From: a virus
Length of the DNA stretch: 64,000 bases
Direction: 5' to 3' (one strand)
Virus record (IMG/VR): IMGVR_UViG_3300022725_000034
Span: 2,659 to 66,658 of that record
Of this stretch, positions 9,286-57,180 are shown in pieces. Each line of letters opens with the position of its first letter. Position 1 is the first letter of the stretch. The notes below the pieces were generated by a model. It did not search any database. It had not been told where the DNA came from and saw only the letters and a program-made list of their open reading frames with translations. The translations under genes and the position numbers were made by a program.

Positions 9286-11573
9286 TGAATACACTTGGAA
9301 TGCGGCTGATCGCCGCGATTATCGACAGTAAGGATTCCTCTCAATTTGTAACAACAGGCATTCGGCGGGAGCTCTTGACCGGGCAGGAGGCTCAGGTATT
9401 CGATTTCGTGTCGGATTACATCAAGAGTTATGCAGCGGTGCCAAGCCGGGAGGTGGTGAATCAGAAGTTCGCTGTCACCGGGGTTTCACTGCCTGTGGCG
9501 GCGGATCCGCCAAAGTTCTATGCTGACGAGGTGCGGAGGCGGTTCATCAATGATCAGTTGGTTGAGGCGTTTAACCAGTGCGCTCCCTTTGTCAGTTCTG
9601 CCGGCATCAACTCGGATCCTGAGAAGGCCCTGTCCATCCTGACTGAGAAGTGCATGTCGCTGTCAGTCACAAACAAGATGGGGCAGATCCTCGACTTCCG
9701 GGAGGCTGGGCCTTTGGTGTTGAAGAACTACCATGAAGCGCAGTACGGGACCGGGCATGAGCCTATCTATTTCGGGTGGGACTCACTGGACAAGGAGAGC
9801 TCAGGCGCCAGACCCGGGGATCTCATTTCCATTATTGGACGACCAGCGGCAGGTAAGGCCCAGCCACTGGACGAACCCGTTAAGACCATGACCGGATGGA
9901 AGAGAATGGGGGATCTTAAAATCGGGGATGAGTTAGCGTCTATTGATGGTTCCCCCAGTCATGTCACAGGGCTTCACCCTCAGGGAGATTTACAGGTTTT
10001 TGAAATTAAATTCAAAGATGGACGTACTACTCGATGTTGTAAGGATCACCTATGGGAAGTCTTCTACCGAGACTGGGATGCCCCACGGGTTGTATCTACG
10101 GAAGATTTAAGGTCTATGCTGGGTAAGAAGCGATATCAGAGGAGACTTTCTGTCCCGTTATCGGAAGGGCACTTTGGCCACACCAACCCGCTGCCGTTAG
10201 ACCCATGGCTGCTTGGCTATCTGCTCGGTAACGGATGTTTCCGTACCAGCCTGAAGGTGTCATGCTCGGACCCGGAAGCCGTGGATCGGATGAGCTCCTG
10301 CTTGCCCCTAGAGTACTCTCTAGTCAAGGCATCCGGCGTTGACTGGCGAATAACCCACGGCGTTAAGAAACGCGAGAATGAATTAGCTACCGAGTTAAAG
10401 AGTCTCGGACTTTGGGAGCACAAGAGCGTTGAAAAGTTTATCCCGGAATCCTATCTTTTGGCGGATAGATCTAGGCGGGTGGAGCTGCTGCAGGGTCTTA
10501 TGGATTCGGATGGTTGGGTCGATAACGGATCTCCCAACTTCGCAACGTCAAGTCCGAGGTTGTCACAGGATGTTCAATCCTTGGTCAGGTCCCTTGGGGG
10601 TGTATGTCGGGTAACAGAAAGGCAGACGACGCATAATCCGAGCTATAGAATGGTGGTCTGTCTTCAGAAAACGAATGAGGCTTTTTGGTTACCGCGGAAG
10701 AAGCAGCAAACCCGGGAGACCCATAGCCATTCAGGAAGGCCCAGCACTCTTAGGAATGTTATAGAGTCCGTTGATTATGTAGGCACCGAGCCGTGCCAGT
10801 GCATTACGGTAAGCCACCCGAGGAGGCTATACCTAACGAAGGACTATGTGGTGACTCATAACACCTTTCTCAGCCTGTCTGTGGCTCTCCACAACTGGAT
10901 CCGACAGCGCAAGGTCGTGGTATTCCTGTCCATGGAAATGCTGCCAGAGATTCTGGCCATGCGAGCCACGGCCATGTATTCCCGGGTTAACCTCGGGTAT
11001 CTGCAGAAGGGCCAGTTGTCCACGCCATCCTTCGAGAAGGTGAAGGCCAATCTGACCAAGGTGAACACGGATGAGGTTCCGTTCTATATTATCGACGGGA
11101 ACCTGACCGCCACGGTGGAGGATCTATGGAACCTTGCTCAGACCTTGAACCCGGACCACATCATTGTGGATGGGGCCTACCTGCTCTCGCACCCCAACCC
11201 AAGGCTTAACCGGTTCGACCGGGTGGCGGAAAACTCCCGGCTTTTGAAGTCGGCGGTTGCCACCAACCTTGGTGTCCCTGTCACCTGCTCATGGCAGTTC
11301 AACCGGGAAGCCGCCAAGAAGGCGAAAGCCAAGAAGGGAGGTGACAAGGGGGATCTGGAGGATATCGGTTTTGCTGATGAGATTGGTCAGTTGTCCAGTC
11401 TGGCCCTTGGCCTGTACCAGCCGGATTCCGTGGAGACGCTTCACCAGAGGCAGATCCAGATCATCAAGGGGCGGAATGGCGAGTGTTCCGGCTTCAACAT
11501 CAACTGGGATTTCCGGACTATGGATTTCTCAGAGGTTGTCCCGGAAACGGTGCAAGAACTGAATTATATTTGA
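9285..11573 (+). CDS. dnaB: Replicative DNA helicase containing an intein
   Basis: GRPAAGK|T, FLSMEM, IIVDGAYL and QFNR motifs. Confidence 0.9.
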   Translation: MNTLGMRLIAAIIDSKDSSQFVTTGIRRELLTGQEAQVFDFVSDYIKSYAAVPSREVVNQKFAVTGVSLPVAADPPKFYADEVRRRFINDQLVEAFNQCAPFVSSAGINSDPEKALSILTEKCMSLSVTNKMGQILDFREAGPLVLKNYHEAQYGTGHEPIYFGWDSLDKESSGARPGDLISIIGRPAAGKAQPLDEPVKTMTGWKRMGDLKIGDELASIDGSPSHVTGLHPQGDLQVFEIKFKDGRTTRCCKDHLWEVFYRDWDAPRVVSTEDLRSMLGKKRYQRRLSVPLSEGHFGHTNPLPLDPWLLGYLLGNGCFRTSLKVSCSDPEAVDRMSSCLPLEYSLVKASGVDWRITHGVKKRENELATELKSLGLWEHKSVEKFIPESYLLADRSRRVELLQGLMDSDGWVDNGSPNFATSSPRLSQDVQSLVRSLGGVCRVTERQTTHNPSYRMVVCLQKTNEAFWLPRKKQQTRETHSHSGRPSTLRNVIESVDYVGTEPCQCITVSHPRRLYLTKDYVVTHNTFLSLSVALHNWIRQRKVVVFLSMEMLPEILAMRATAMYSRVNLGYLQKGQLSTPSFEKVKANLTKVNTDEVPFYIIDGNLTATVEDLWNLAQTLNPDHIIVDGAYLLSHPNPRLNRFDRVAENSRLLKSAVATNLGVPVTCSWQFNREAAKKAKAKKGGDKGDLEDIGFADEIGQLSSLALGLYQPDSVETLHQRQIQIIKGRNGECSGFNINWDFRTMDFSEVVPETVQELNYI
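9858..10862 (+). mobile_element. Class 3 intein (335 aa) with LAGLIDADG endonuclease
   Basis: Ala1 (AQPLD), W in DHLW, C in CQCITV, T in VVTHN, Thr+1; motifs LGYLLGNGC and GLMDSDG. Confidence 0.9.
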
Positions 11574-42741: not shown

Positions 42742-43809
42742 ATGGCAAAAACGAAAACATTGAAAGTTCGAGTCAAGGATAAACACGCGAAGGTGCTTGC
42801 AAGACAAGCGGCCTCGGTGAACCTTGTCTGGAACTACATCAATGAGCTGAGTTCGCGGGCGATCCGTGAGCGTGGCCAATTTTTGTCAGCGTTCGATATC
42901 CATAAATACACCACGGGAGCTTCCAAAGAGCTTGGGCTTCACAGCCAGACTCCTCAGGTGGTGGCCAAGGAATACATCACCCGCCGAAAACAATTCAAGA
43001 AGCAAAGACTGGCCTGGAGAAAAACCTTTGGTGTGCGCCGATCCCTTGGTTGGATCCCAGTGAATACTGGCATGGCGAAGTGGAAAAATGGCCAGGTCTA
43101 TTTCAACGGCCAATACTACGGCGTCTGGGATAGCTACGGCCTGTCTCAATACAAATTCCGATCCGCGAGTTTTAATGAGGATTCACGCGGTCGCTGGTAT
43201 TTCAACGTGGCCGTTGATGTGCCGGAGCAAGAAACGACGAAAGGAAAGTCAGCGGTTGGAATAGATCTTGGCTGTAAAGATGCAGCCACCTGCTCCAACG
43301 GCGATAAGCTTTCAGGTCGCTGGTATCGAGGGATGGAAGAAAAGCTCGGAAAAGCCCAGCGAGCCAAAAATAAAAAAGAAGTGAAGACTATTCACGCAAA
43401 GATCGCGAATCGTCGAAAGGACGAAATGCACAAGTTCAGCCGGAAACTGGTGAATGAGAATGCAGCGATCTTTGTTGGAAATGTAAACTCCCTGGCCATG
43501 ACAAAAACGAAGCTTGCCAAGTCCACCTTGGACGCAGGCTGGGGAATACTGAAAACCATGCTGGAATACAAGTGCGATCACGCAGGCGTGGTTTTCGAAG
43601 AAGTGAATGAAGCATACACCTCCCAAACCTGTTCGAGTTGCGGTGCAAAACCCGATTCGAGGCCGAAAGGTATCGCAGGCTTAGGAATAAGAGAGTGGGC
43701 CTGTGACAGCTGTGGTGAGCGTCACGACCGCGATATTAACGCGGCCAGGAACATTCTCGCGGTCGGACATGGCCGTCTTGCAGAAGGAATCCCCGTCCTT
43801 TCCGCCTAA
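42742..43809 (+). CDS. tnpB: TnpB RNA-guided endonuclease (rearranged RuvC-II type)
   Basis: GIDLG, IFVGN (Gly at the usual Glu), VNEAYTS, CSSC...CDSC, DRDINAARN. Confidence 0.93.
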   Translation: MAKTKTLKVRVKDKHAKVLARQAASVNLVWNYINELSSRAIRERGQFLSAFDIHKYTTGASKELGLHSQTPQVVAKEYITRRKQFKKQRLAWRKTFGVRRSLGWIPVNTGMAKWKNGQVYFNGQYYGVWDSYGLSQYKFRSASFNEDSRGRWYFNVAVDVPEQETTKGKSAVGIDLGCKDAATCSNGDKLSGRWYRGMEEKLGKAQRAKNKKEVKTIHAKIANRRKDEMHKFSRKLVNENAAIFVGNVNSLAMTKTKLAKSTLDAGWGILKTMLEYKCDHAGVVFEEVNEAYTSQTCSSCGAKPDSRPKGIAGLGIREWACDSCGERHDRDINAARNILAVGHGRLAEGIPVLSA

Positions 43810-44739: not shown

Positions 44740-44872
44740 CGGGTTCACCCCCGGCGATGCATGGGATGCCCTGAAACTGCAGCATTCCGAGATAGATCTT
44801 TGCAACAATCGACTGAAGTGCGCCCGGGCGGCCAACTCTGCGGAAGGTGATCTGCCCGAAGATTGCAATTAA
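44591..44872 (+). CDS. Outer-membrane spanin lipoprotein (Rz1-like)
   Basis: Overlaps the i-spanin 3' end; signal peptide with lipobox-like LGSSC; several Cys. Confidence 0.65.
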   Translation: MRLLASKTILICSLPLILGSSCATLDLFSEKPARTVAERYLIDCKKIQADGFTPGDAWDALKLQHSEIDLCNNRLKCARAANSAEGDLPEDCN

Positions 44873-44891
44873 TTTCAAAAAGGAGACAGGT

Positions 44892-45554
44892 GTGGCGGGA
44901 TTGATTATAGCGGTGGAGGGGTTACCCGGTACCGGCAAGACAAGCCTTTGCAAGGTGGTTGCTCAAGAGCTTGGAGTTCAGTACACCAAGGAGCCCTACA
45001 CCCGGGGAGACTGGGGTGGTCACCGAGACCTGCTGTATAACCCGAATCATTCCCAACGCACCCGAGCCTTTCTGATGATGGCCCAGCGTTCGAGCCATCT
45101 TGAAGAATTTGAGGCCATCCCTCGGGCCCACTTTGAGCCCGTCATCTTTGACCGCTACATCCTCACCACCGTAGGCCATCAGGCCGAGAGCCTTGGTGAT
45201 GCCCACATGCTTTACAAGTACCAGACCATGGTCGGATTCCGGAAGCCGGATCTGCAGGTGTACCTGACGGCGCCCCGGGATGTTCGCCTGTCCCGCATGG
45301 AGGATCGGGGCGAGAACGATGAACTGGATGAAATGAACACCGAGTCCTTGGAGGAGCACTTTCACCATGGACTGAAGCTGATGGTTGAGGACGGTGTGCC
45401 GGTGACCATCATTGACACCTCGAAGTCCTCTTTCGAGCAATGCCTGAATATGCTTCTCTCTGACATTAAGGAGATAGTCGATGGAAACCGAGACATTGAT
45501 ACTGTTAATCATAGTAACCGCTCTGACACTGGCCGTAGCCTCCCTTTGGCTTGA
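44892..45554 (+). CDS. tmk: Thymidylate kinase
   Basis: IAVEGLPGTGKT, KEP, IFDRY, PDLQVYL. Confidence 0.85.
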   Translation: MAGLIIAVEGLPGTGKTSLCKVVAQELGVQYTKEPYTRGDWGGHRDLLYNPNHSQRTRAFLMMAQRSSHLEEFEAIPRAHFEPVIFDRYILTTVGHQAESLGDAHMLYKYQTMVGFRKPDLQVYLTAPRDVRLSRMEDRGENDELDEMNTESLEEHFHHGLKLMVEDGVPVTIIDTSKSSFEQCLNMLLSDIKEIVDGNRDIDTVNHSNRSDTGRSLPLA

Positions 45555-45732
45555 AGTCCAAAAGCTCCGGGGCCGAGCCCTCAGATCGGAGATTCTGCTC
45601 AAGAACCTGTACCTTGAGGCAGAAGTTGAGACGACCCCTGATGAGGGGCAGGTACAGGAAACCTTCAATTATGGCAACCTGAAAGGAATGTTTGCCCATG
45701 GCACTGAACATCGAGAAGAATCCCAAGGCTGA
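45481..45732 (+). CDS. Small N-anchored membrane protein
   Basis: Hydrophobic N-terminus; RBS AAGGAG. Confidence 0.55.
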   Translation: METETLILLIIVTALTLAVASLWLEVQKLRGRALRSEILLKNLYLEAEVETTPDEGQVQETFNYGNLKGMFAHGTEHREESQG

Positions 45733-45994
45733 TAGTCCGAGCAAATCCGGAGAAGGCCTGCATATCCCCGCCCTGAAGAAGAATCCGGCATGGCCGAAGC
45801 TACGGGACCGCCTGAGGGAGTACCTTGAGTGCGTGTACCTGTACGACACCGTGAAGTCTTACATACTCGGGTTCGGCAAGGTTGGGTTGAGTAAGGACGA
45901 AGCCTTTGACTTGTCACTGTTAACGCAGGAACTGGTCAGAGTCCACCAATCGGGCAAGCCAGCCCAGAAACTGAGAGACACGCTGTATGACTGA
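45698..45994 (+). CDS. Hypothetical protein
   Basis: 98 aa, starts MALNI. Confidence 0.6.
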   Translation: MALNIEKNPKADSPSKSGEGLHIPALKKNPAWPKLRDRLREYLECVYLYDTVKSYILGFGKVGLSKDEAFDLSLLTQELVRVHQSGKPAQKLRDTLYD

Positions 45995-46427
45995 CATGAA
46001 GTTTGAACTGATAGCGGAAGGTTTCACCCCGGAATATGCCGATGATGGTGATGCCGGCATGGATTGTCGGGCGAGACTGGATGAGGAGTTGATCGTCTTC
46101 CCGGGGCAGGCGGAGTTGGTACCTCTCGGGTTCAAGATTGAGATCCCGAACAATCAGATTGGCGGGTTCCTGTTCCCGAAGTCTGGCCGGGGCCACAAAG
46201 AAGGGCTGATTTTGGGCAACTGCATTGGCGTCATTGATTCCGGATATCGAGGTGAGGTGATGGCCTCTATCTGGAACCGGAACAGCAACGAGGCCTTGAG
46301 GATCAAGCCGGGGCAGAAGGTCTGCCAGATTGTGTTCCTGCCGATTATCCGGGCGGACCTGTATCACGGCGCCGTTGGCCACACCACTCGGGGAGAAGGC
46401 GGTTTCGGTAGCACCGGCATTTCCTGA
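45987..46427 (+). CDS. dut: Trimeric dUTPase
   Basis: DAGMD, KSG, GVIDSGYRGE, KVCQ, RGEGGFGSTG. Confidence 0.95.
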   Translation: MTDMKFELIAEGFTPEYADDGDAGMDCRARLDEELIVFPGQAELVPLGFKIEIPNNQIGGFLFPKSGRGHKEGLILGNCIGVIDSGYRGEVMASIWNRNSNEALRIKPGQKVCQIVFLPIIRADLYHGAVGHTTRGEGGFGSTGIS

Positions 46428-46435
46428 AAAACTAT

Positions 46436-46463
46436 TTGACTAAACCTCTAACTTTGGTAGACT
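46436..46463 (+). promoter_or_regulatory. Phage sigma70-like promoter
   Basis: TTGACT-16 bp-TAGACT. Confidence 0.75.
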
Positions 46464-46500: not shown

Positions 46501-48285
46501 ATGCTGGAATACATAACCACGGTCTTCACAGACCCTGAAAAGATGACCCCTGACCTTCTCGGGGGTAAGGGTTACCACCTCGCCAAAATGGTCTCCATGG
46601 GATTGCCGGTGCCACATGCCGGCATTCTCACCACTGCGTTTTTTGCTAAGCACTTCCATCCGGAAGACGTGAAGTCGAAGAAGACCCTCATTGATGATGT
46701 GATGATGGACGAGCTTCGGACCATGCTGGATTCGATCATCTGGACTATCGAGAATGACCACACCCTGATCTCTGTCCGCTCCGGCGCCAAGATCTCGATG
46801 CCGGGGATGATGGATACCATCTTGAACGTGGGCATCACTTCAAAGACTCGACCGGGCCTGATCGCCAAATACGGTGAGGAGCTTGTCGATGCCTTGGAGA
46901 TACGCCTGATTCGGATGTATGCCGATGTGGTGTTCGGGGTAGACGTTCTGGATTACCCGACCCCGACTCTGGTCAGGGATGAATACCAGCACAAGGTTGG
47001 CATCCCGTTCTTCGACACGGTTGAGGAGCAGGTGCTGAATGCGGTGGTGGCTGTCTTCGAGTCTTGGTACAACGAACGGGCGGTGAAGTACCGGGAGATC
47101 AACAACATCCCACACGATATCGGGACCGCCGTTGTACTGCAGAAGATGGTGTTCGGCAATAAGGACTCCGCCTCCTGCACTGGCGTCTACTTCACTGGAA
47201 ACCCGAACACCGGAGACACCAAGCACACCGGGGAGTTTCTGGTGGGCGCTCAGGGTGAGGATGTGGTTTCTGGTGAGGTGACCCCAGACAACGTGGAAGA
47301 CCTCGACTTTGACGGCCCCCACAAAGGCATGACCCACGCTTTCAAGCAGTTGGCCGGATACGCCCACTACCTCACCGAGGAGTTCCGGGACATGCAGGAT
47401 ATCGAGTTCACCATTGAATCTGGTGAGCTTTACATCCTCCAGACCCGCAGTGCCAAGCGCACGGATCGGGCGGCCCTGAGGTTCGTAACTGAGAAGATCA
47501 AGAAGGGGTGGTCCTTTCAAGAAGGCGACAAGGCCCTGAGCTACGTCACACCTGAACTGATTGGTCGCATGTTCCGGGAGACGATTCACCCTGACAGCTT
47601 GAAGGATCTGCAGGAGGTCTGCTCTGGTCTGGCGGTTGGTGGGGGCCTTGTCCAAGGCAAGCCGGTATTCGACCGGGAGGACGCCGTGGCCGGGACTATC
47701 TTCATGACCGAGTACACGACCCCTGACGATCTGGATGCCATGTTGGCCTCGGAGGGTGTGGTCACTCGCACCGGAGGTGCTACCAGCCATGCTGCCATCG
47801 TTGCCCGGTCACTGGGTAAGCCTGCGGTGGTTGGCTGTGGCGACTCTGTGGGTAACGTGATTGGGAACGACTGGATAGTGATCGACGGGGATGCTGGCAA
47901 GGTCTACAAGACTCTCGGAGGACAGCCGGTGGTCATGGTGCAGGGTGAGGCCACCCCGGAGTTCCTTGAGTTCGCCAAAATGGTGTGGGGAAAAGACCTC
48001 GACACCAAGACGAACTACGTCAGACCGTTCTCGAACTTGGAGGAGTCGTCCTGCATTGCCCGAATCTTCGGAGTGGAGTCTACCGTCGCTGGCACCAACA
48101 CCCCGAAAGACCCGGTGGAGGAAACGGATATTCCTGAGGAGGTGCTGGCCTTCTTGGAATCCGTGAACATCAAGGAGGAGACGATAAAAGTAATCACCTC
48201 CAAGGGGTTCAAGATTTCAGAATCCTGCTATGATAGAGACCCAGTAGTTGTGGCGTTGAACGAGATTCTGAAGGATAAGGACTGA
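46501..48285 (+). CDS. PPDK-like dikinase lacking the pyruvate-binding domain
   Basis: LLGGKG, SVRSGA.ISMPGMMDTILN, QGEDVVSG, DIEFTIE, LQTR and phospho-His motif TSHAAIVAR; ends about 110 aa after the His domain. Confidence 0.85.
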   Translation: MLEYITTVFTDPEKMTPDLLGGKGYHLAKMVSMGLPVPHAGILTTAFFAKHFHPEDVKSKKTLIDDVMMDELRTMLDSIIWTIENDHTLISVRSGAKISMPGMMDTILNVGITSKTRPGLIAKYGEELVDALEIRLIRMYADVVFGVDVLDYPTPTLVRDEYQHKVGIPFFDTVEEQVLNAVVAVFESWYNERAVKYREINNIPHDIGTAVVLQKMVFGNKDSASCTGVYFTGNPNTGDTKHTGEFLVGAQGEDVVSGEVTPDNVEDLDFDGPHKGMTHAFKQLAGYAHYLTEEFRDMQDIEFTIESGELYILQTRSAKRTDRAALRFVTEKIKKGWSFQEGDKALSYVTPELIGRMFRETIHPDSLKDLQEVCSGLAVGGGLVQGKPVFDREDAVAGTIFMTEYTTPDDLDAMLASEGVVTRTGGATSHAAIVARSLGKPAVVGCGDSVGNVIGNDWIVIDGDAGKVYKTLGGQPVVMVQGEATPEFLEFAKMVWGKDLDTKTNYVRPFSNLEESSCIARIFGVESTVAGTNTPKDPVEETDIPEEVLAFLESVNIKEETIKVITSKGFKISESCYDRDPVVVALNEILKDKD

Positions 48286-48289
48286 AGTT

Positions 48290-48886
48290 ATGGCATTAAT
48301 GATCGGAAGAAAAGAAGGCGAAGACCTGTTTATCGAGGACACCCGAGTTGAGGTTCTTCAGATCACTTCGTCCCGGCTGTTCACCCTCCGGGTCCATGAA
48401 GAATCCGGGCCGGTGGACTATGAGATTGATGATCGGAAGGAGTACCCGATTTACTTCGAGAAGGAGCACTCGAAAGACTTTGGCAAGGTGGATCGACCTG
48501 TGGTGTTCGTGAGTGCCCGACCAAACGGATCGTCTCACTTCGCCATCATCGGATTGAAGGCGCCTCGCCGGGTGGCCATCATGAGGGGTGAGCTTTATCG
48601 CCAGTCCGGAGGAGAGTACCGATTCTCCGATAAGGCCCGAGATCAGATCGAGCAAGGGCTTGTTGGCGTATCACTGGACAGCATTACTGAAATCCTGCCG
48701 AGGACTACGGTCTACTCGCATCCGAGGGCGAACAGAAGGTTTGACGACCTGCTATTCCGGATGAACGGCAAGATCGTGGAGGAGGTGTTCACCCTTTCGA
48801 CCTCTCCCACGCTGGTACGGTCGGAGTGTGTGGCTCCACTGTACGAATCAGACAAGGGTCTTGGTTTTGAAATTAATTGCAATTAA
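48290..48886 (+). CDS. CsrA-like protein (tandem/split fold) with extra C-terminal domain
   Basis: LMIGRKEGEDLFIEDTRVEVL matches the CsrA N-terminus; IGLKAPRRVAIMRGELY matches IGVNAPKEVSVHREEIY. Confidence 0.6.
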   Translation: MALMIGRKEGEDLFIEDTRVEVLQITSSRLFTLRVHEESGPVDYEIDDRKEYPIYFEKEHSKDFGKVDRPVVFVSARPNGSSHFAIIGLKAPRRVAIMRGELYRQSGGEYRFSDKARDQIEQGLVGVSLDSITEILPRTTVYSHPRANRRFDDLLFRMNGKIVEEVFTLSTSPTLVRSECVAPLYESDKGLGFEINCN

Positions 48887-48897
48887 GGAGATTGGGC

Positions 48898-49473
48898 GTG
48901 AAGCAACTACTGAGCAGTATCCGTGAATGGTTCCGAGGAGCTTTTACTTTTGCAGAAGGAGAGCCTGCAGCGGAAGGGACGGAGTCTTTCTTTGATGTGG
49001 CCCCGAGGGATTTGTTTACCGGGCGGGCCGGCAATGGAAAGGTGATCCTGCCGCACCCGTATCAATCGGGACCTTTGGTGCTTCACGGTGGACCCTACCG
49101 GAGTAAGCCCCATGAATTGCTGGGCGTTCGGCTGGAAATGTCGGCGCCGGCAGATGACACTATGGTTGTGGACTTCCCGATTGTTGATTTCGGGGTTCCC
49201 GATTACGAGGATCTGGTGACCGCTGTCCATAAGGCGTATGAGCGGGCGCTTGGGGCCAGAGAGCTTTACATCGGATGTACCGGAGGGTTCGGACGCACCG
49301 GGTTGTTCATGACCTGCCTGATGGCCCGAGTCATGTTTGAAAACGGATTCCCCTTCCCGGATGCCAAGGCCGCCGTCACCTACCTGCGGGCCCTGTATGT
49401 CCCGAACGCAGTTGAGACTGCAGATCAGATGGATATGGTTGAGCGGTATATCAGCGACCTGAACGCCGCATGA
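48898..49473 (+). CDS. Cys-based (PTP/dual-specificity-type) phosphatase
   Basis: IVDFGVP, CTGGFGRT (CX5R), AVETADQ; RBS AAGGAG before GTG 48898. Confidence 0.8.
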   Translation: MKQLLSSIREWFRGAFTFAEGEPAAEGTESFFDVAPRDLFTGRAGNGKVILPHPYQSGPLVLHGGPYRSKPHELLGVRLEMSAPADDTMVVDFPIVDFGVPDYEDLVTAVHKAYERALGARELYIGCTGGFGRTGLFMTCLMARVMFENGFPFPDAKAAVTYLRALYVPNAVETADQMDMVERYISDLNAA

Positions 49474-49476
49474 TTT

Positions 49477-49496
49477 GGGGCCTTCGGGCCCTTTTT
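49477..49496 (+). terminator. Rho-independent terminator
   Basis: GGGCC-ttcg-GGCCC followed by a T run. Confidence 0.75.
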
Positions 49497-49499
49497 CAT

Positions 49500-49527
49500 T
49501 TGACAAAACCTATAATTTAGGTAGAAT
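49500..49527 (+). promoter_or_regulatory. Phage sigma70-like promoter
   Basis: TTGACA-16 bp-TAGAAT, identical over 28 nt to 4222-4249. Confidence 0.8.
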
Positions 49528-49554: not shown

Positions 49555-50562
49555 ATGTTCTTCAAAGACTACAAGCTGGCTTTCCGAACTCCCCACGATT
49601 TATCCGAAGTTCCGTTCAAGGCGGTTAAGGGGAGTCTCGATCTGCATCACAGCAAGGCCCACCAAGTAGAAGAAGATATCGTCAGCTTCTACAACCTCGT
49701 TGCATTGGTGAATCATCAGATCCGGGGCGACTACCACGTAATGACCAGCCGTGACGCTGACATTCTCCGGAGAGTTGATGAATTGATGGAGCCGATACTT
49801 CGGCGCATGATCAACTACCTGACGGTGGTCTGCATTCGGGAGTGCCGGCACTACAAGAAGTTCCCAGTGAAGGGAGCGTCGGACAACTGGAACGAGGCCG
49901 TTTCCGGGGTAAAGGGTACCAGTGGCTTCGACTGTGTTGAGAAGGTCTACGCCACGCCAGACCTCAATACCATGAGCCTCCGAGAATTGTTGGAAGGGGC
50001 TTCGGCCTGCTTCGGATCCTCGTACTGGGGCGGAGCCTTTGGAGGTAAGGCTTGGAAGACGATCTCGGACCACACTCTGAAGTTCGTAGCCGGAGAGATC
50101 TCGGCGGAAGTCTTCATTGATCAGGCGTTCTCGCTACAGCACAACACGACGACCGTCTTCAACAAGTCCGTGATTTACAAGTATGACACTGTGGACAACA
50201 TCACCACCCTGCTTGATATGCAGGCCCATGGCATCATCGGACTTGCTTTCGAGGCCTATGACAGTGGAAAGTGTGACGCCACAAAAAAGCTGATGGAGGA
50301 GTTCTACCCGGAGTTCCTGAATCCGGACCTGACCGGTGTGGATAAGCCTCTGCTCTCAAAGGTTCCGATGATCGGCGTCAATCTGGGGGCCAAGTCGAAG
50401 ACTGCCAGCCCCACTCATAAAGCCTTGTGGACCTACCAGAAGCTGACCGAGGCTGAGGCCAAAAAGATGCTGACGTTCATGAAGTCCACATTGACCATCA
50501 CCAAAAAGCAACGCTCGGCAGGCAATCACGCTGCCAAGGTTCAAGTTCTCACTAGCCAGTAA
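49555..50562 (+). CDS. Unassigned helical protein with conserved-looking motifs
   Basis: 335 aa; IRECRH, FGGKAWKTI, FIDQAFSLQHN...FNK. Confidence 0.75.
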   Translation: MFFKDYKLAFRTPHDLSEVPFKAVKGSLDLHHSKAHQVEEDIVSFYNLVALVNHQIRGDYHVMTSRDADILRRVDELMEPILRRMINYLTVVCIRECRHYKKFPVKGASDNWNEAVSGVKGTSGFDCVEKVYATPDLNTMSLRELLEGASACFGSSYWGGAFGGKAWKTISDHTLKFVAGEISAEVFIDQAFSLQHNTTTVFNKSVIYKYDTVDNITTLLDMQAHGIIGLAFEAYDSGKCDATKKLMEEFYPEFLNPDLTGVDKPLLSKVPMIGVNLGAKSKTASPTHKALWTYQKLTEAEAKKMLTFMKSTLTITKKQRSAGNHAAKVQVLTSQ

Positions 50563-50572
50563 GGAGATTGCT

Positions 50573-51256
50573 ATGTGCCGATGCACACCTAAGCCGGTGC
50601 CTTTCCAGATAGGGCACCACACGATTTACGGTACCGGATTCGGATTCAGCAAGACTGCCTCCGTGTCTGTGAAAGGGTTTGATCTGGGTGTACTGCTGGA
50701 CTGGAGTGCCGGGTCGGAGTTTCTTCGGGCGGCCAAGCCGTGGAAGTCCCCCAAAGTGTTCAGCTATGAGATCCGGGATATGAGTGTTCCGGACAACATG
50801 GCCGAGTTCCAGAAGCTGCTGGATTATCTGGGGCAGGCCCTCAAAGATGAGAAGAAGGTGATCGTCGGATGCATCGGCGGACATGGACGCACAGGGCTCT
50901 TACTGGCGGCTTTGCACCACCACCTAACCCAGTCCCCAGATGGGATGAAACAAGTCCGCCAACAGTACTGCAAGAAGGCCATTGAGACCCAGAAACAGAT
51001 CGACTGGCTGCATGACAATTTTGGACTCGAGAAGGTGGAGCCCTCCAAGAAGTATGGCCGTGGCAAGGGTAACCAGATCGACTGGTTTGGAGACTCCACG
51101 CCCGGGTTCGGAAGCACTGAGTTTGAGAGGCCCGGATTCTACAAGGGACGCAAGCAGGCCAACTCCGGAGGTAAGAAGCGGGAGAAGCCTATCGAATTTG
51201 AGGAAGGCACTTCGTCACTATTTGACAAAACCCCAATTTCTGGTAGACTGTGGTAA
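50573..51256 (+). CDS. Second Cys-based phosphatase
   Basis: IRDMSVP, CIGGHGRT (CX5R), AIETQKQ. Confidence 0.8.
   Translation: MCRCTPKPVPFQIGHHTIYGTGFGFSKTASVSVKGFDLGVLLDWSAGSEFLRAAKPWKSPKVFSYEIRDMSVPDNMAEFQKLLDYLGQALKDEKKVIVGCIGGHGRTGLLLAALHHHLTQSPDGMKQVRQQYCKKAIETQKQIDWLHDNFGLEKVEPSKKYGRGKGNQIDWFGDSTPGFGSTEFERPGFYKGRKQANSGGKKREKPIEFEEGTSSLFDKTPISGRLW
51222..51249 (+). promoter_or_regulatory. Phage sigma70-like promoter
   Basis: TTGACA-16 bp-TAGACT. Confidence 0.7.
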
Positions 51257-51283: not shown

Positions 51284-52048
51284 ATGGCATTGAAGATCAA
51301 CCAATCCAAGCCCAAAATGCAGATCAACCTGTACCTGCTGACTTCAGCCGGCGGGGCCAGTCAGGCGGTACTGTCCAACTGTCCGGCCCATGCCGTTTAC
51401 GATGGCACCAACATCACCTTTGACTTTGCCGGCGAGGAGATCATCGTTGGCCCGATCAAGGACATTAACTACTTCCTTGAGAACGTGTCGAAGGGGGAGG
51501 CTGGGTCGATCAAGTTGTGTCAGTCCATCTGTGAACAGCTTGAAACCCACCTGAAGGATAGTGGCTTGGCCAACTCGTTTGAGCAAACCACCCCGCAGGC
51601 CCAAATGCCGGCCTACGAGGGCAACACGACTGTCAATGGCCTGCAGCCACGGCACAAGTCCCCGGCGGAAATCAGTGCTACCGATCACCCGGCGCTGGCC
51701 CTGTACGATTACGTGCCCGGTACCAGCGAGACCAATTATCGGGCGATTGGCCGGACCATGTGCTTCCTGTTTTCGGTGAAACTGAGCAACGAGAAAAGCG
51801 GATCTATCCGGGTGGAGGCCCTGCCGGAGTATGATATTGACTCGACCGGCAAGGAGCGTCTGGATGCCCTCGGGTTCTCAATCAAAAATGGTGTCAACAG
51901 TGCCGGTAAGCACTGTCAGTATGCAACGCTGCATGGCGGGCTCGGACCTGATGACATGGCCAACATGTTCGACCTGATTGGAGCCCTCCTTGCCCGGTTC
52001 AACATGCGCCTGCCAGTCGGGGTGACTCTGGAGGATCTGCAGCCATGA
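51284..52048 (+). CDS. Hypothetical protein
   Basis: 254 aa, RBS AAGGAG, starts MALKI. Confidence 0.7.
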   Translation: MALKINQSKPKMQINLYLLTSAGGASQAVLSNCPAHAVYDGTNITFDFAGEEIIVGPIKDINYFLENVSKGEAGSIKLCQSICEQLETHLKDSGLANSFEQTTPQAQMPAYEGNTTVNGLQPRHKSPAEISATDHPALALYDYVPGTSETNYRAIGRTMCFLFSVKLSNEKSGSIRVEALPEYDIDSTGKERLDALGFSIKNGVNSAGKHCQYATLHGGLGPDDMANMFDLIGALLARFNMRLPVGVTLEDLQP

Positions 52049-52248: not shown

Positions 52249-52667
52249 AGCTGACCAATAGACAGGCAGAATTGATCAACGCTCTCCTCGGGGTGAAGGT
52301 GACTCACTCGAAGAACGGACACTCGCAGATCCACCCGAGAAAGCTGGCCGGTGTAGCTGGACGACTCGGACTGAAGCTGGAGAAGGCTTCTATGGTTCGA
52401 TCTTCTACCGGTGGAGTGATTGTCAATTTTCGGATTGGCGAGGACTTGGGGTTGTCGGTGGAGATTGCCAGCGATCAACACGTAAGGCTTTTCCTTGGAA
52501 GTCTGGTCCTACTGTTATCGGCAGGGCCGGATTCCGAGAATTTGAAATCAATTTCAAACCAGTACTACGAGGTCATTGATGGGAAAATTATACATAGTCG
52601 CAAAAGGGAATCAGCAGCACATGGAGCACTCGGTTGGGGTGGCCCTGAGGAGGTTCCAAGCGACTGA
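52245..52667 (+). CDS. Hypothetical protein
   Basis: 140 aa; overlaps the polymerase start. Confidence 0.45.
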   Translation: MKLTNRQAELINALLGVKVTHSKNGHSQIHPRKLAGVAGRLGLKLEKASMVRSSTGGVIVNFRIGEDLGLSVEIASDQHVRLFLGSLVLLLSAGPDSENLKSISNQYYEVIDGKIIHSRKRESAAHGALGWGGPEEVPSD

Positions 52668-55600
52668 CGTTGTACTGTGGAAATTCATCGAAGCCCAACC
52701 CTCATTCCCCCAGCTACAGGCTGGGGATGTTGCTTTGTGCATGGGCAAAGCGGTTTATAAGTTTCTCGCCTCTCACTCCATAGTCCCGAAGAACAAGAGT
52801 CACGCCAGCAACCGCATGAAGATGATTCCGTGCGGAGAAGGCAACCTGATTTTCACCTTTGACCCGTATGAGGGATGGAACGATTACGCCCGCCGAGTCG
52901 ATATCATGACGGACGCGACCTTGGCCCTGAGAGTTCAGCGAACGGGGAGCTTGAAGGTTCAGTACGGGGAGTATCAGTTCGTTGAGCATTATGGCCACAT
53001 TGTTGACCGGATCAAAGACTGCCCCAACGATCAGTTTGTGGATATCTCACTGGATCTTGAAACGGTGGGGCTGGACGAATGGGATCCGGAGAAGTGGATC
53101 GTCAGCATATCCCTGACTGTGGATGAAGGGACTGCCGATCTGGTGTATTTCACCAAGGATTTCCAGCCAGACCGGACCCAACCAGAGGGAATGATACAGC
53201 GGACTCTTTGGGAGCAGCTTCAATTCATCCTGAATCACCCGAGGGTGAAGATCCGTGGCGCAAACCTGAAGTTCGACTGTCGCTGGATCCGGGTGAAGTG
53301 GCAGATGCTGGTAACCCGATTCGTGTTCGACTGTATCCTTGCTGGATCACTGCTTGATGAGAATCGCAGTAATTCCCTGAACATTCTGACCAAGATCTAT
53401 GAGCCTCAGCTTGGCGGTTACGATGATTGCGTGGCTCCCCATGTCCGGGTACTCACCAGTGATCTTCGATGGATTCCAGTCGGAGATGTAGTAGCCGGGG
53501 ATAAGTTGCTGGGCTTTGATGAGCACTCAGGGTCCGGCAAGGGTAAGCGCAGAAGGATGAGAATATCCGAGGCTGTCTCCACCAAGAGGATTACCAAGCC
53601 GGGGGTGAGGATAACCCTCTCGAATGGCGTGGAGATTGAATGTAGCTCCGACCATGGTTTCCTTAGCCCGAGAGGGACCAACGGCGGTAGTACCCTTTGG
53701 AAGAGAGCTTACCAGTTGAAGGTTGGGGATCGTCTCCTCCAAGTGTGTTCAGTGAAAGATCCAGCCCAAGACTGGGATGCTGGGTATATCAGCGGACTCT
53801 ATGATGGGGAGGGGTACGTTTCTTATCAGGGAGGAGGGCTGACCTCGGGCATATCCCAACGTCCGGGCAAAGTTTGGGACAAGTACTGTGAAGTGATGGA
53901 GGCCCATGGGTTCTCTGGCTTCTATGCTGGGCAGAAGAACACGGACGGGGTTATGACCAGTAAGCACTCAGGAGCCCAAACTTTGGAAATCCTGCAGGTG
54001 TTCCGACCCCGGCGACTCCTTGAAAAAGAATGCTTCGATGGGAAGTGCATCCCCTCGGGAACAGAAAAGGTCTGGATAACCGATATTAAGCAGATTGGTG
54101 ATATCGAGGTGGTCAGTCTGGAAACCAGCACCCACACCTTTGTTGCGGAAGGGATTGCCTCGCACAATTCGTTCAACCTGAAGTATGACAAGAGCCGGAT
54201 GGATCTGGTGCCAAAGGAAGACATGTTGGGCTATGCCGGTGGCGATACCGATGCCTGCCAGCGAGTCTCCACCAAAGTCAGGAATGACCTCCTGCAGGAT
54301 AAGCAGCTTTCCCGGTTCTATGTGAAACTGCTTCACCCGGCTTCCCGAGCCTTCGAGGAAATGGAGTGCGGCGGGGTACTGGTTGACAAGGATCGGTATG
54401 AAGATCTCCGGGGTAAGCTGGAGGCCGAGCTTAAACGCTGTCAGGCGGAAGCCAACGAGATACTGCCGGCACGATTGAAGGCCAAGCACAACTGGGACAC
54501 ATCACTCACAAAGGCAAAGGTGATAACGGACTTCCTGTTCTCCCCGCTTGGCCTGAATTTGAAGCCTCTTGAGGTCACAGGTAAGACCGGGGCTCCGAGT
54601 TCAGCGAAATCCCACATCATGAAGTTCATCGACCACCCGGACGTAAAGGAGTTCATGGATGTGTACTCCGATTTTCTGGGGGCAAAGAAAACCCTGTCTA
54701 CCTACGTCGAGGGGTTCCTGAAGCACCTGCGTAGTGATGGCCGGTACCACCCCAGTTACATAATGCACAGGTCCGATGATGGCGGTACGAACTGTCTTCC
54801 AGCCGATCAGTTGGTTCTTACAGAGCAGGGGTACAAGCCTATTGTTGAAGTCAAGGTTGGTGCCAAGGTTCTCAGCCACACAGGGTACTGGTCTGAAGTG
54901 ACCGACTTTATAAACAACGGCAGAAAGCCAGTTTTCCGAGTCATTATGAGTGATGGTAGGAGTATCAGGGCTACCGAGAATCACCCACTTCTAACTGTCA
55001 ACGGTTGGGCCACTGTAGGAGACCTCAACTCAGGAGACACGGTTATTGGGTACAGTGGCGAAGAGATCTGGACCCGAGAGGCTATTGAGTCTGAGAAGGC
55101 CACGTTCGATGCCTGCACAGTTGTATCTGTAGAGTATTGCGGAGTAGAGCCGACCTATGACATCACTGTGGAAGGTAGTCATTCCTTTGTTGCGGAGGGT
55201 TTGGTGGTTCACAACACGGGTCGATTGTCAGCTAAAGATCCTGCAATACAGTGCGTCACAGGGGAGACCATTGTGTGGGCCCCTGATGGACTTCATCGGA
55301 TAGACAGTCTGGTTGATGGTGTGGGGTTCATCGAAAAGAAAATAGACCTGATCACGGAGTCAGGAGTTGAGGAGACATCGTACACCTTCAAGAAGTGGGC
55401 GGATGCTTTAGTTAGGGTGACTCTCAGGAACGGTATCCAGTTCAGATGCACACCAGACCACCCGTTCCGAGTAGCCACGGGGGAGATGGTACAGGCTAAA
55501 GACCTGACCCCGGGCCAACAGGTGAAGAACCAAACCCACCTTCCAGATTTCTCTCGGGAGACCGAACTTCCCACTGCCGGGTATATCGACCGGGACAAGA

Positions 55601-57180
55601 TTAAGGATCTGACCCTGCCCGAGAAGATGACCGGGGATCTGGCGTGGCTCATTGGCTTCTGGCTGGGTGAGGGCTCTATCTGTAAAAGACTGGGCCTGAT
55701 TGTTACTGCCACCTCGAAGCCTATGTATCAGAACAGAGTTGCAAGCACATTTGAGTCCTTCGGGTTAAATCCGGGGACAAGACCAGACCGAGTGTACGTT
55801 TACTCCAACGCCTTCTACCGGTGGTGGACTGAGGTTCTTGGGCTGGGGGAGAAGTCTTACGCCCACACCAAAACCGTGCCTGAGTTTATGATGTCCGACA
55901 AACATCTCAAGAGCCTTATTCGAGGGCTGATGGATGCCGATGGGAGTGTCCATATTGCGAAGAGTGGTCACCGAGGCAAACGCCTTGTCCTGTCCTTCAG
56001 CAGCAACAGCCGATACCTGATCGAGCAAGTACAGCAGGCGGTACTGGCTTTCGGGTTCGGGGCCGGCAGTGTCGGAGTGGATAAGCGGACTGAAAACTAC
56101 CTACTGCAGTGGTCTACAAAGCAAGCCCTACCGCTTCTGAATTTCCTTGAGATAGAGCATGACTTCGAGGGGGATGTTCGATCAGGGGGACGATCACCGT
56201 CTCTGGGGTATCAGGTGAAATCGGTGGTTCCATGTGAAGGGGATTACGTCTATGATGTGACTGTTCCCGGCTCCCACACCTTCACCCCGAATGGGGTTGT
56301 AACCTCAAACACCGTTCCGAAACACACCAAATGGGCGAAGGCTTTGCGGGCCTGCTACATAGCCCCTCCCGGGTACAAGTGTTTCGAGGTGGACTTCTCT
56401 CAGGGTGAACTCCGGATCGCTGCTTGTGTGGCCAATGAGCCCACGATGATCAAGTATTACCTTCAGGGTATGGACCTTCACCTAGTAGCAGCTTGCAACG
56501 CTATGGGGATCAGCATTGAAGAGGTCCTGCAAATGAAGGGGACTGACAATGTGATTCTGGATAGTCACGGGGTTCCCCAGACTTTCAAGTCGATTCGTCA
56601 AAACGGAAAGGCGGCTAACTTCGGACTGATCTATGGCATGAGTGCCGATGGCTATCAGATCTATGCGGAGGATAGTTACGGTGTGAAGCTGACTTCTGCT
56701 CAGTGTCATGCTCAGCGAAACGCCTTCTTTGATCTCTATTCAAGACTCGGACCTTGGCACGATAGCTACAAGGGGCTGGCCAGACAGCAGGGATTCATCC
56801 GGTCACCGTTGGGACGGGTACGCCACCTGCCTCTTATCAGACACCCCTCCTCTGAGATACGATCCAAGGAAGAGCGGAGGGCCATCAACGCCCCGGTTCA
56901 GTCAACCCTGTCGGACCTCACCCAGTATTCTCTGGTCAAGTTTCAGGAGTACTACGGATTCGGGACTACCAACCCGGAAGTACAATTCGCTATGATGACC
57001 CATGACTCCCTGTCTGGTTATGTCCGGGAAGATAAGGCTGAGGAGTGGCTTGGCAAGCTGGTTGAGCTGATGTCCAACCTTCCACTGGAGCAGGAGTTCG
57101 GCTGGAGACCTCAAGTGCCGTTTGTAGCAGAAGCTGAATTGGGCGACGATATGGCTACACTTGAAGAGATCGAAGTCTGA
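52579..57180 (+). CDS. polA: Family A DNA polymerase with 3'-5' exonuclease and three inteins
   Basis: DLETVG, NLKFD, YAGGDTD, TGRLS, DFSQGELR, KAANFGLIYG, THDS motifs; about 793 aa after splicing. Confidence 0.93.
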   Translation: MGKLYIVAKGNQQHMEHSVGVALRRFQATDVVLWKFIEAQPSFPQLQAGDVALCMGKAVYKFLASHSIVPKNKSHASNRMKMIPCGEGNLIFTFDPYEGWNDYARRVDIMTDATLALRVQRTGSLKVQYGEYQFVEHYGHIVDRIKDCPNDQFVDISLDLETVGLDEWDPEKWIVSISLTVDEGTADLVYFTKDFQPDRTQPEGMIQRTLWEQLQFILNHPRVKIRGANLKFDCRWIRVKWQMLVTRFVFDCILAGSLLDENRSNSLNILTKIYEPQLGGYDDCVAPHVRVLTSDLRWIPVGDVVAGDKLLGFDEHSGSGKGKRRRMRISEAVSTKRITKPGVRITLSNGVEIECSSDHGFLSPRGTNGGSTLWKRAYQLKVGDRLLQVCSVKDPAQDWDAGYISGLYDGEGYVSYQGGGLTSGISQRPGKVWDKYCEVMEAHGFSGFYAGQKNTDGVMTSKHSGAQTLEILQVFRPRRLLEKECFDGKCIPSGTEKVWITDIKQIGDIEVVSLETSTHTFVAEGIASHNSFNLKYDKSRMDLVPKEDMLGYAGGDTDACQRVSTKVRNDLLQDKQLSRFYVKLLHPASRAFEEMECGGVLVDKDRYEDLRGKLEAELKRCQAEANEILPARLKAKHNWDTSLTKAKVITDFLFSPLGLNLKPLEVTGKTGAPSSAKSHIMKFIDHPDVKEFMDVYSDFLGAKKTLSTYVEGFLKHLRSDGRYHPSYIMHRSDDGGTNCLPADQLVLTEQGYKPIVEVKVGAKVLSHTGYWSEVTDFINNGRKPVFRVIMSDGRSIRATENHPLLTVNGWATVGDLNSGDTVIGYSGEEIWTREAIESEKATFDACTVVSVEYCGVEPTYDITVEGSHSFVAEGLVVHNTGRLSAKDPAIQCVTGETIVWAPDGLHRIDSLVDGVGFIEKKIDLITESGVEETSYTFKKWADALVRVTLRNGIQFRCTPDHPFRVATGEMVQAKDLTPGQQVKNQTHLPDFSRETELPTAGYIDRDKIKDLTLPEKMTGDLAWLIGFWLGEGSICKRLGLIVTATSKPMYQNRVASTFESFGLNPGTRPDRVYVYSNAFYRWWTEVLGLGEKSYAHTKTVPEFMMSDKHLKSLIRGLMDADGSVHIAKSGHRGKRLVLSFSSNSRYLIEQVQQAVLAFGFGAGSVGVDKRTENYLLQWSTKQALPLLNFLEIEHDFEGDVRSGGRSPSLGYQVKSVVPCEGDYVYDVTVPGSHTFTPNGVVTSNTVPKHTKWAKALRACYIAPPGYKCFEVDFSQGELRIAACVANEPTMIKYYLQGMDLHLVAACNAMGISIEEVLQMKGTDNVILDSHGVPQTFKSIRQNGKAANFGLIYGMSADGYQIYAEDSYGVKLTSAQCHAQRNAFFDLYSRLGPWHDSYKGLARQQGFIRSPLGRVRHLPLIRHPSSEIRSKEERRAINAPVQSTLSDLTQYSLVKFQEYYGFGTTNPEVQFAMMTHDSLSGYVREDKAEEWLGKLVELMSNLPLEQEFGWRPQVPFVAEAELGDDMATLEEIEV
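53428..54168 (+). mobile_element. Intein 1 of PolA (247 aa, one LAGLIDADG motif)
   Basis: CVAPH...CSSDH...GLYDGEG...SHN before Ser+1. Confidence 0.88.
54793..55215 (+). mobile_element. Intein 2 of PolA (141-aa mini-intein)
   Basis: CLPAD...ATENHP...VVHN before Thr+1; no endonuclease. Confidence 0.9.
55252..56310 (+). mobile_element. Intein 3 of PolA (353 aa, LAGLIDADG endonuclease)
   Basis: CVTGE...CTPDHP...GFWLGEG...GLMDADG...TSN before Thr+1. Confidence 0.88.

Follow-up and report, generated by a model that had tools for sequence, protein, structure and literature searches.

A phage dikinase without a pyruvate domain: probable phosphoryl donor of a conserved six-gene cassette

The question raised by the locus

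What is the role of a pyruvate, phosphate dikinase (PPDK) that has lost the domain binding pyruvate and phosphoenolpyruvate (PEP)? The question is raised by the gene for a 594-aa protein, here called P0001, in a 64,000-nucleotide stretch of viral DNA (the window; positions 2,659 to 66,658 of IMG/VR record IMGVR_UViG_3300022725_000034, which is 67,152 bp long and ~74% complete). It is generally stated that the phage gene encodes a glycolytic PPDK (PMC9229204, PMC10141217), and statements of this kind, that it is a PPDK auxiliary metabolic gene (AMG), are the only ones found in the literature on the function of the phage dikinase or of the genes around it. On the evidence of sequence comparison and structural models, we consider P0001 most likely to be the ATP-driven phosphoryl-donor half of a PPDK-type enzyme, serving an uncharacterised phage pathway and not sugar metabolism. 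This matters for annotation: the gene figures as a glycolytic AMG in dozens of phage genomes and in several papers, a common label that is corrected here. PPDK-derived phosphoryl donors are known already; what is new is a variant that lies within a conserved and uncharacterised phage cassette.

The two retained domains

P0001 consists of an ATP-grasp domain (residues ~1-340), a linker with a phospho-His swivel domain (~341-470) and an acidic, lineage-specific tail (471-594). An initial annotation, made from the nucleotide sequence without database searches, held that the first two domains, including a TSH motif, are intact, and proposed a profile search for their boundaries. In that search residues 18-265 match PPDK_N (E 2.7e-43) and residues 398-466 match the PEP-utilizers mobile domain (E 1.5e-22); the motif is T428-S429-H430, and the assignment is borne out. 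The aligned span corresponds to residues 15-508 of the 874 in Clostridium symbiosum PPDK (EC 2.7.9.1; PDB 1kbl/1dik), with 33-40% identity over the first ~500 residues of the two proteins. K23, R93, D300, E302, Q314, R316 and H430, which align to K22, R92, D321, E323, Q335, R337 and H455 of the C. symbiosum enzyme, are invariant in 50 family members; in the T-S-H motif, which aligns to T453-S-H455, S429 is also invariant and T428 is at least 90% conserved. The structures in the PDB that match the model of P0001 include the PPDK mutants K22A, R337A and T453A. Judged from these alignments, every residue for which a role in the ATP/phosphate half-reaction of PPDK is known is present and invariant, and ATP-dependent loading of His430 would therefore be expected.

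The AlphaFold model, built on a 50-sequence alignment, has a mean predicted local distance difference test score (pLDDT) of 84 and a predicted TM-score (pTM) of 0.82, with high confidence to about residue 495, and it superposes on 1kbl (Foldseek E 8e-44, TM 0.73 by query). Taken together, model and alignment indicate that both the ATP-grasp domain and the swivelling carrier of His430 have been kept intact.

The short length is not an artefact of assembly or of a frameshift, because the next gene starts 4 nt after the dikinase stop codon with its own ribosome-binding site (RBS), because a sister phage has the same form, and because the tail has a low ratio of non-synonymous to synonymous substitution (dN/dS; values are given below). 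The dikinase itself has a strong RBS, with AAGGAG 7 nt upstream of the ATG.

Loss of the PEP/pyruvate barrel

In PPDK the two domains described above are accompanied by a PEP/pyruvate TIM barrel of ~340 residues, and it is this barrel that P0001 lacks. The genuine PPDKs amongst the homologues are 856-943 aa long and carry PEP-utilizers_C (PF02896), to which P0001 has no Pfam match. A hidden Markov model (HMM) of the PPDK C-domain was built from 19 true PPDKs (~90 invariant columns) and run with filters off. It matches 93 of 94 full-length PPDKs; amongst 160 short proteins it gives only five matches, all of them contig-truncated true PPDKs, and none to a genuine short form. The same model finds nothing in a six-frame translation of the 64-kb window. 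PF02896 was not found in the whole record, nor in five near-complete relatives that bear the cassette (phages DLP5, RcZahn and Ares1, deposited as complete genomes, and two from IMG/VR with a completeness of 95% and 100%), whereas 14 of 14 control genomes match.

Profile alignment to the barrel with hhalign gave probabilities of 0.3% for the P0001 tail, 0.7% for the longer tail (~200 aa) usual in the family and 0.2% for U335, the orphan protein encoded third after the dikinase. U335 as a detached pyruvate/PEP barrel is ruled out by this value and by its all-alpha model; for the usual tail as a degenerate half-barrel there is no support, in view of its hhalign value and the lack of HMM matches. 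P0001 is well below the cut-off of the curated PPDK equivalog TIGR01828 (370.9 against 843.45 bits), and also below that of the short PPDK-like NCBIfam model NF004531 (377.9 against 456 bits). The initial annotation had described a protein that stops at 594 aa without the C-terminal TIM barrel, and Pfam, the dedicated HMM and hhalign agree with it. It had also allowed that the short C-terminus or another phage gene might supply a pyruvate-binding domain; such a domain was looked for in the protein, window, record and five relatives and was not found. As the barrel is absent from the protein, from the phage record and from its relatives, P0001 is, to judge from sequence, unable to interconvert pyruvate and PEP, and the warning that annotation as a metabolic PPDK would be wrong is upheld.

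The gene has nevertheless been considered a genuine PPDK that boosts host glycolysis, with PEP or pyruvate bound by the short C-terminus or, in relatives, by a four-stranded 'TIM barrel'; it is so annotated in most of 61 phage records as well as in the papers cited above. The barrel was proposed for residues 524-691 of a 691-aa homologue, into which PEP was docked (PMC12038007); the same paper calls the sixth protein of the cassette a pyruvate decarboxylase. Neither claim is supported by the HMM, hhalign, conservation and sixth-family tests made here. The structural likeness of P0001 to PPDK does not extend beyond the first ~500 residues; not one column is invariant in the family tails, against ~90 in true PPDK C-domains; and docking into a predicted cavity is no evidence of binding. 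Added to this are the failure of any short form to match the C-domain HMM, the hhalign values below 1%, the curated cut-offs that are not reached and the strict linkage (see below) to phosphatases and orphans that true viral PPDKs lack. We regard a metabolic PPDK as most improbable.

Origin of the short form and the nature of its tail

P0001 belongs to PHROG 18609 (phrog_18609, E 3.1e-120). An exhaustive homologue search recovered 20,091 relatives; of the 150 best representatives, one per 50%-identity cluster, almost all are 610-745 aa long (usually 640-740 aa for the family) and lack PF02896. The long relatives comprise true PPDKs, forms with an intein and forms whose extensions are unexplained. 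When a tree was made from the shared ATP-grasp and His region, a split with support 0.997 placed 142 of 143 short forms, P0001 amongst them, in one clan; one of 45 true PPDKs lies on the same side. A single, essentially monophyletic origin of the short-form phage dikinases is therefore indicated by the sequences. Amongst the hosts of the family are Vibrio, Stenotrophomonas, Rhodobacter and Rhizobium; Alphaproteobacteria and Acidobacteria carry copies that resemble prophages.

Three homologues of unusual length should be mentioned here. P0147 (852 aa) and P0248 (817 aa) are close relatives of the short forms but fall outside their clan, with weak matches to PEP-utilizers_C (57-75 bits, where true PPDKs score ~245-275), and may represent stages by which the barrel was lost. 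In P0232 (989 aa) an insertion of the LAGLIDADG type lies within the dikinase itself.

What follows the catalytic His differs between lineages. Most members have 225-285 residues after it, including a C-domain of ~200 aa that is net acidic in 96% of members and evolves rapidly (mean column identity 18%, no invariant column). P0001, its homologue P0002 (593 aa, 72% identical, from the sister phage) and the fragment P0003 have ~164 residues, ending in an unrelated-looking tail of 125 aa; this tail has only the linker helix in common with the usual C-domain, the hhalign probability beyond the helix being 3.8%. It is well conserved amongst its three carriers, and only amongst them.

A shortened tail could be taken as the sign of a decaying remnant, a PPDK gene cut back by deletion and no longer functional, and indeed only a handful of the family are as short as P0001 or shorter, and its tail is not confidently folded. 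However, dN/dS against the 72%-identical sister phage is low in all three regions, as under purifying selection (~0.18 in the tail, 0.15 in the ATP-grasp domain, 0.08 in the His domain), the catalytic residues are all intact, the sister phage keeps the same architecture, and the gene has a strong RBS and translational coupling to the next gene. Decay is thus scarcely credible. Because the tail is well conserved amongst its carriers and dN/dS is low, P0001 is a functional, lineage-specific minimal member of the family.

A conserved six-gene cassette

In the window, the dikinase is followed by genes for a CsrA-like protein, a Cys-based phosphatase (PTP-a) of the dual-specificity phosphatase (DSP)/protein-tyrosine phosphatase (PTP)-like kind, U335, a second such phosphatase (PTP-b), a 254-aa orphan, two small open reading frames (ORFs) and DNA polymerase A. 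Annotations of Stenotrophomonas phage DLP5, Rhodobacter phage RcZahn and Vibrio phage Ares1 show the same gene order. More generally, phages of PHROG 18609 (Vibrio SIO-2, VHS1, Ares1, Virtus and J26; Stenotrophomonas DLP5 and DLP3; Rhodobacter RcZahn; Rhizobium RHph_TM16) have dikinases of the same clade and the six-gene order beside DNA polymerase A. They differ from the lineage of P0001, P0002 and P0003 in the dikinase C-domain, as described above, and in a CsrA-like protein that is ~90 aa shorter. The layout of the sister phage is identical to that of the window, including the 593-aa dikinase and an unusually long CsrA-like protein of 198 aa.

The strength of the linkage was assessed in 80 viral loci retrieved via the dikinase, all ORFs of which were searched with iterated HMMs; the counts refer to the 51 short-form loci with enough downstream DNA. 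U335 and at least one PTP occur in all 51, two PTPs in 48, a CsrA-like gene in 50, and all of these together in 48. The sixth family is found in 43 and DNA polymerase A in 41. None of ten loci with full-length viral PPDK has a U335, PTP or CsrA-like gene. In the reverse direction, ten of ten loci found through U335 in bacterial genomes and metagenome-assembled genomes have the complete cassette, dikinase included; some of them lie within large chromosomal contigs (Roseococcus, Azospirillum and a chromosome of the Thalassobaculaceae) and are probably prophages. A megablast search of the cassette against phage records gave no match.

These data define a large, strictly conserved and wholly uncharacterised six-gene phage module, and its function is directly testable in culturable model phages. 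The initial annotation had proposed that the dikinase acts on an acceptor presented in trans, and had named the neighbour that proves to be U335 and to co-occur in every locus counted. Its interpretation, that P0001 is something other than a metabolic PPDK and would have its acceptor in trans, is for the most part upheld; it was incomplete as regards the size of the family, the minimal form, the six-gene module tied to DNA polymerase A, and the existing precedent for a truncated PPDK (VadK, see below).

Partner proteins

Residues 1-109 of the CsrA-like protein are recognised by the HMM of its family (E 5e-17), and in structure the protein resembles a CsrA-family cluster that is mostly viral (TM 0.80 by hit). 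Residues 110-198 are an extension restricted to the lineage of P0001, whose dikinase tail is ~100 residues shorter than usual. Extension and shortening may compensate each other; by sequence, the extension could not be related to the C-domain usual in these dikinases, the (weak) profile of which has no match in other genes of the window, the extended CsrA-like protein included.

The two phosphatases have the P-loops C134-TGGFG-R140 (PTP-a) and C100-IGGHG-R106 (PTP-b), and the general-acid Asp and the C-x5-R-T-G motif are invariant in both families (40-member alignments). Their nearest solved relatives are Tk-PTP, SsoPTP and DUSP23 (profile E 1e-13 to 1e-7), that is, small archaeal-type and atypical PTPs. 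An error of annotation concerns the second phosphatase: DLP5 gp143 (L001:11601-12389) and phrog_17568 are labelled 'thymidylate synthase ThyX', yet they are the second DSP/PTP-like phosphatase of the cassette, gp143 matching Pfam Tc-R-P/PTP-SAK/DSPc and not Thy1. A real but weak ThyX-like match in DLP5 sits elsewhere, at ~73.4 kb.

The combination of one dikinase with two dual-specificity-type phosphatases mirrors the plant starch phosphorylation cycle, in which a dikinase works with the dual-specificity-type phosphatases SEX4 and LSF2. By analogy with glucan water dikinase, to which the dikinase superfamily relationship seen in the Foldseek and NCBIfam matches extends, P0001 could phosphorylate host glycogen or another polysaccharide that the phosphatases help to mobilise. 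However, no carbohydrate-binding module was detected by Pfam in P0001 or in any other cassette protein; the 594 residues are fully used by the two PPDK domains and the 125-aa acidic tail; the PTPs are nearest to the small archaeal-type enzymes and not to glucan phosphatases; and the linkage to DNA polymerase and the CsrA-like protein would be left unexplained. A glucan cycle is accordingly a highly unlikely role.

C-terminal tails are net basic in 87% of U335, 84% of PTP-a and 95% of PTP-b members, against 54% of background ORFs; together with the acidic C-domain of the dikinase they make electrostatic docking possible, or else nucleic-acid binding. PTP-b tails carry a conserved I/L-W motif at their very end or close to it, and U335 tails finish in a recurrent R-x-A-A.

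The remaining two partners are orphans. The model of U335 is confident (pLDDT 83, pTM 0.80). None of 52 members has a Pfam match at E up to 1, DNA-modification families included, and nothing was found in PDB sequence profiles, PADLOC, NCBIfam or the Atlas feature search. Its alignment contains 17 invariant columns, mostly polar, amongst them E96, R98, H99, G163, G164, W167, D189, H196, N197, K204, D221 and Q223. Five of 36 members of the sixth family match the C-terminal domain of ribosomal protein L7/L12 (best E 2.9e-6), and no other match was found; in particular, thiamine-diphosphate enzymes and transporters, after which papers on Vibrio phages name the protein, are matched by no member. 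U335, the sixth orphan and the usual dikinase C-domain are without known family or fold.

Transfer of the phosphoryl group: a proposed mechanism

A complex of dikinase residues 340-594 with U335 residues 1-290 was predicted with a median ipSAE of 0.59 (0.43, 0.59 and 0.75 in the separate runs), U335 having a pLDDT of ~80, and the three controls all scored 0.00. The support mark of the complex tool is reached by 58 of 80 solved complexes and by two of 110 mismatches; amongst those that pass, scores of 0.60 or less are found for only seven of the 80 solved complexes but for both mismatches. The prediction that the initial annotation had suggested for this pair is therefore clean with respect to controls but lies in the band of weak support.

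With this in mind, the following scheme can be suggested. The dikinase would autophosphorylate His430 from ATP, as has been shown for VadK. U335 would dock on the part of the dikinase formed by the His domain and the tail, and the swivel domain would hand its phosphoryl group, in trans, to whatever substrate U335 holds at its invariant polar site. The two phosphatases might then take the phosphate off the product, if it serves as a transient activating or leaving group, or off carrier intermediates, so as to reset the system. Delivery in trans at U335 is favoured because the C-domain of the dikinase has no conserved residue, the site in U335 is invariant, and U335 is never found without the dikinase. 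We hold it to be very likely that P0001 is not a PPDK and acts as a trans-acting His~P donor. The chain as a whole, with U335 as the acceptor site, seems to us evenly balanced between right and wrong; that U335 is a direct partner or the acceptor site is, taken by itself, a tentative assignment that falls slightly short of an even chance.

Several observations weigh against this scheme. The complex score is in the weak band, as noted, and the final ~95 residues of the dikinase have a pLDDT of 34-62. U335 has no known fold or family, and it is from conservation that it is put forward as a candidate enzyme; U335 was nowhere found fused naturally to another protein of the cassette, nor in a form of at least 684 aa, although this is weak evidence. 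Both PTPs are closest to protein-tyrosine phosphatases, which fits a protein-regulatory role at least as well. Terminator-like and promoter-like sites lie between PTP-a and U335, so that the genes may not share one transcript. A ThyA-type hydroxymethylase was not found in the 67-kb record or in the five relatives, which bears on one possible class of substrate. Finally, the chain is drawn from sequence, predicted models and analogy.

What might be phosphorylated

Amongst known systems, the closest characterised analogue, and the only characterised truncated PPDK, is VadK (Rv1127c) of Mycobacterium tuberculosis, which provides the existing precedent for an orphan enzyme of this kind. VadK autophosphorylates His422 with ATP and Mg, the H422A variant being dead; it binds methylcitrate-cycle enzymes, and an operonic partner aids its solubility (PMC13400623). 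It has the same two-domain architecture as P0001, with no PEP domain in the protein or elsewhere in the genome (PMC13400623), but only ~68 residues after the His, against 164 in P0001. The partners also differ, being methylcitrate-cycle enzymes for VadK and, for the phage-borne P0001, the CsrA-like protein, the pair of Cys-phosphatases and the orphans. P0001 does not reach the cut-off of NF004531, the short PPDK-like model, and a link between that model and VadK is in any case an inference only. Taken with the phage family, VadK suggests that PPDK has repeatedly become a free-standing phosphoryl donor by losing its pyruvate domain.

By extension from VadK, the phage dikinase may be a histidine autokinase that binds or phosphorylates phage replication proteins or host enzymes, with the PTPs as erasers, the CsrA-like protein as a post-transcriptional regulator and U335 as target or adaptor instead of an enzyme. 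Apart from the precedent itself, this role would account for the relationship of the PTPs to protein phosphatases, for the conservation of a CsrA-like regulator in the cassette and for the fast evolution of the dikinase C-domain, which is what would be expected of a host-specific protein-binding surface. It is less easily reconciled with the invariant polar residues of U335 and the sixth protein, which are typical of catalytic sites, or with the retention of two distinct phosphatase paralogues in fixed positions across very divergent phages; moreover, P0001 does not reach the NF004531 cut-off (378 vs 456 bits), and the methylcitrate partners of VadK are absent from the cassette. Regulation of this kind is a serious candidate, but on balance an unlikely one.

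Other members of the superfamily show that an ATP-grasp domain and a swivelling His module can act on an acceptor other than pyruvate, as in rifampin phosphotransferase (RPH), PEP synthase, glucan water dikinase and the prodigiosin ligases PigC/RedH. PigC/RedH and rifampin phosphotransferase are amongst the NCBIfam and Foldseek matches of P0001. In all of these the acceptor domain is fused in cis, and the order of domains is often another one, the His domain of RPH and PigC being C-terminal; P0001 has the domain order of PPDK, and its NCBIfam scores lie well under the cut-offs for these enzymes, such as 85 bits against 999 with the rifampin phosphotransferase model.

That PPDK-type modules of the PigC/RedH kind can serve as activating enzymes is one of the arguments for modification of nucleic acids or nucleotides, in which His~P would activate a hydroxyl group of the phage DNA or of a nucleotide precursor, the phosphate would be used as a leaving group by U335 and the sixth protein, the phosphatases would trim precursors or intermediates left unused, and the adjacent polymerase would use the product. 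The cassette is directly upstream of DNA polymerase A in 41 of the 51 loci and, in the lineage of P0001, comes just after genes for a dNMP kinase and dUTPase. The basic tails of U335, PTP-a and PTP-b would fit, although they could equally dock on the acidic C-domain of the dikinase. DNA of the cassette-bearing phage DLP3 resisted all 15 restriction enzymes tested, the modification being unidentified (PMC7326821); DLP3 also has a glycosyltransferase that could equally account for the resistance, and there are other modification genes in these phages. The lack of a ThyA-type hydroxymethylase, noted above, means that the known kinase-dependent route of thymidine hypermodification, by way of 5-hydroxymethyl-pyrimidines, is not available, and this logic was rejected for the cassette. 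The failure of U335 to match any DNA-modification family in Pfam is a further difficulty. Modification of nucleic acids is, in our view, also unlikely.

A relay like that of the PEP-dependent phosphotransferase system (PTS), which runs from the His~P of Enzyme I through HPr and EIIA to a Cys~P on EIIB, has some parallels here, in that the His carrier of Enzyme I is homologous and in that a His~P donor is found beside small proteins and proteins with a Cys P-loop. The donor of P0001 is, however, ATP and not PEP, the Cys proteins of the cassette have the DSP/PTP fold and not that of EIIB, and the CsrA-like protein has no conserved His or Cys; a PTS-like relay in the cassette is pure conjecture. 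It can be incorporated into a more specific proposal, in which the His~P donor docked to U335 would phosphorylate a hydroxyl group of newly made phage DNA or of a precursor nucleotide, the phosphate would act as a leaving group or pass along a PTS-like relay of Cys P-loops, and the adjacent DNA polymerase would make use of the new modification. We consider this proposal improbable as it stands; if true, such a modification would explain the restriction resistance of DLP3-type phages.

Returning to the phosphoryl donor as the preferred reading of P0001, we can say of its final substrate that a protein, with regulation as for VadK, and something linked to nucleotides or nucleic acid are about equally likely, each being rather doubtful; another small molecule or polymer has somewhat better prospects, though still well short of probable.

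Positions of the features and further observations

The features are collected in Table 1. The promoter-like match upstream of the dikinase should be read with caution, given that the counts of promoters and terminators around the dikinase region are no higher than in shuffled controls.

Table 1. Features of the dikinase locus, with positions in the window.
Feature	Position	Strand	Remarks
dTMP/dNMP-kinase-like (44847-45554) and dUTPase (45987-46427) genes	44847..46427	+	Lineage-specific upstream context
Sigma-70-like promoter match, TTGACT-16-TAGACT, TG extended	46436..46463	+	Upstream of dikinase; consensus match only
PPDK-derived dikinase half-enzyme P0001, 594 aa	46501..48285	+	Pfam, PHROG, model, PPDK alignment
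Codon of catalytic His430	47788..47790	+	Equivalent to His455 of C. symbiosum PPDK
Dikinase C-terminal tail, residues 471-594	47911..48282	+	Linker helix, then ~95 low-confidence acidic residues
CsrA-like protein, 198 aa	48290..48886	+	Residues 1-109 belong to a small family (85-130 aa) found after short dikinases
PTP-a, Cys-based DSP/PTP-like phosphatase	48877..49473	+	Asp104, C134-x5-R140-T-G; exact start codon uncertain
Terminator-like hairpin (49477-49492), then strong promoter-like site (49500-49527, 11/12 matches)	49477..49527	+	Ahead of U335; consensus matches only
U335, 335-aa orphan all-alpha protein (phrog_20946)	49555..50562	+	Candidate acceptor-site subunit
PTP-b, second Cys-based DSP/PTP-like phosphatase	50573..51256	+	Asp69, C100-x5-R106-T-G; basic disordered C-terminal tail
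U254, divergent member of sixth conserved family ('U297')	51284..52048	+	Weak family match, E 5e-7
DNA polymerase A (3'-5' exonuclease and polymerase), intein with LAGLIDADG endonuclease	52576..57180	+	Usual downstream neighbour of cassette

Some further features of the window may be mentioned. The DnaB-like helicase at 9282-11573 contains, like the polymerase, a LAGLIDADG domain. A gene of the TnpB/IS605 OrfB type (OrfB_IS605 with a Cas12f1-like TNB domain) lies at 42742-43809, a few kb upstream of the cassette. The first 2000 positions (1-2000) have 66% G+C, against ~52% in the remaining window; an ORF of 685 aa at 151-2208 has no Pfam match.

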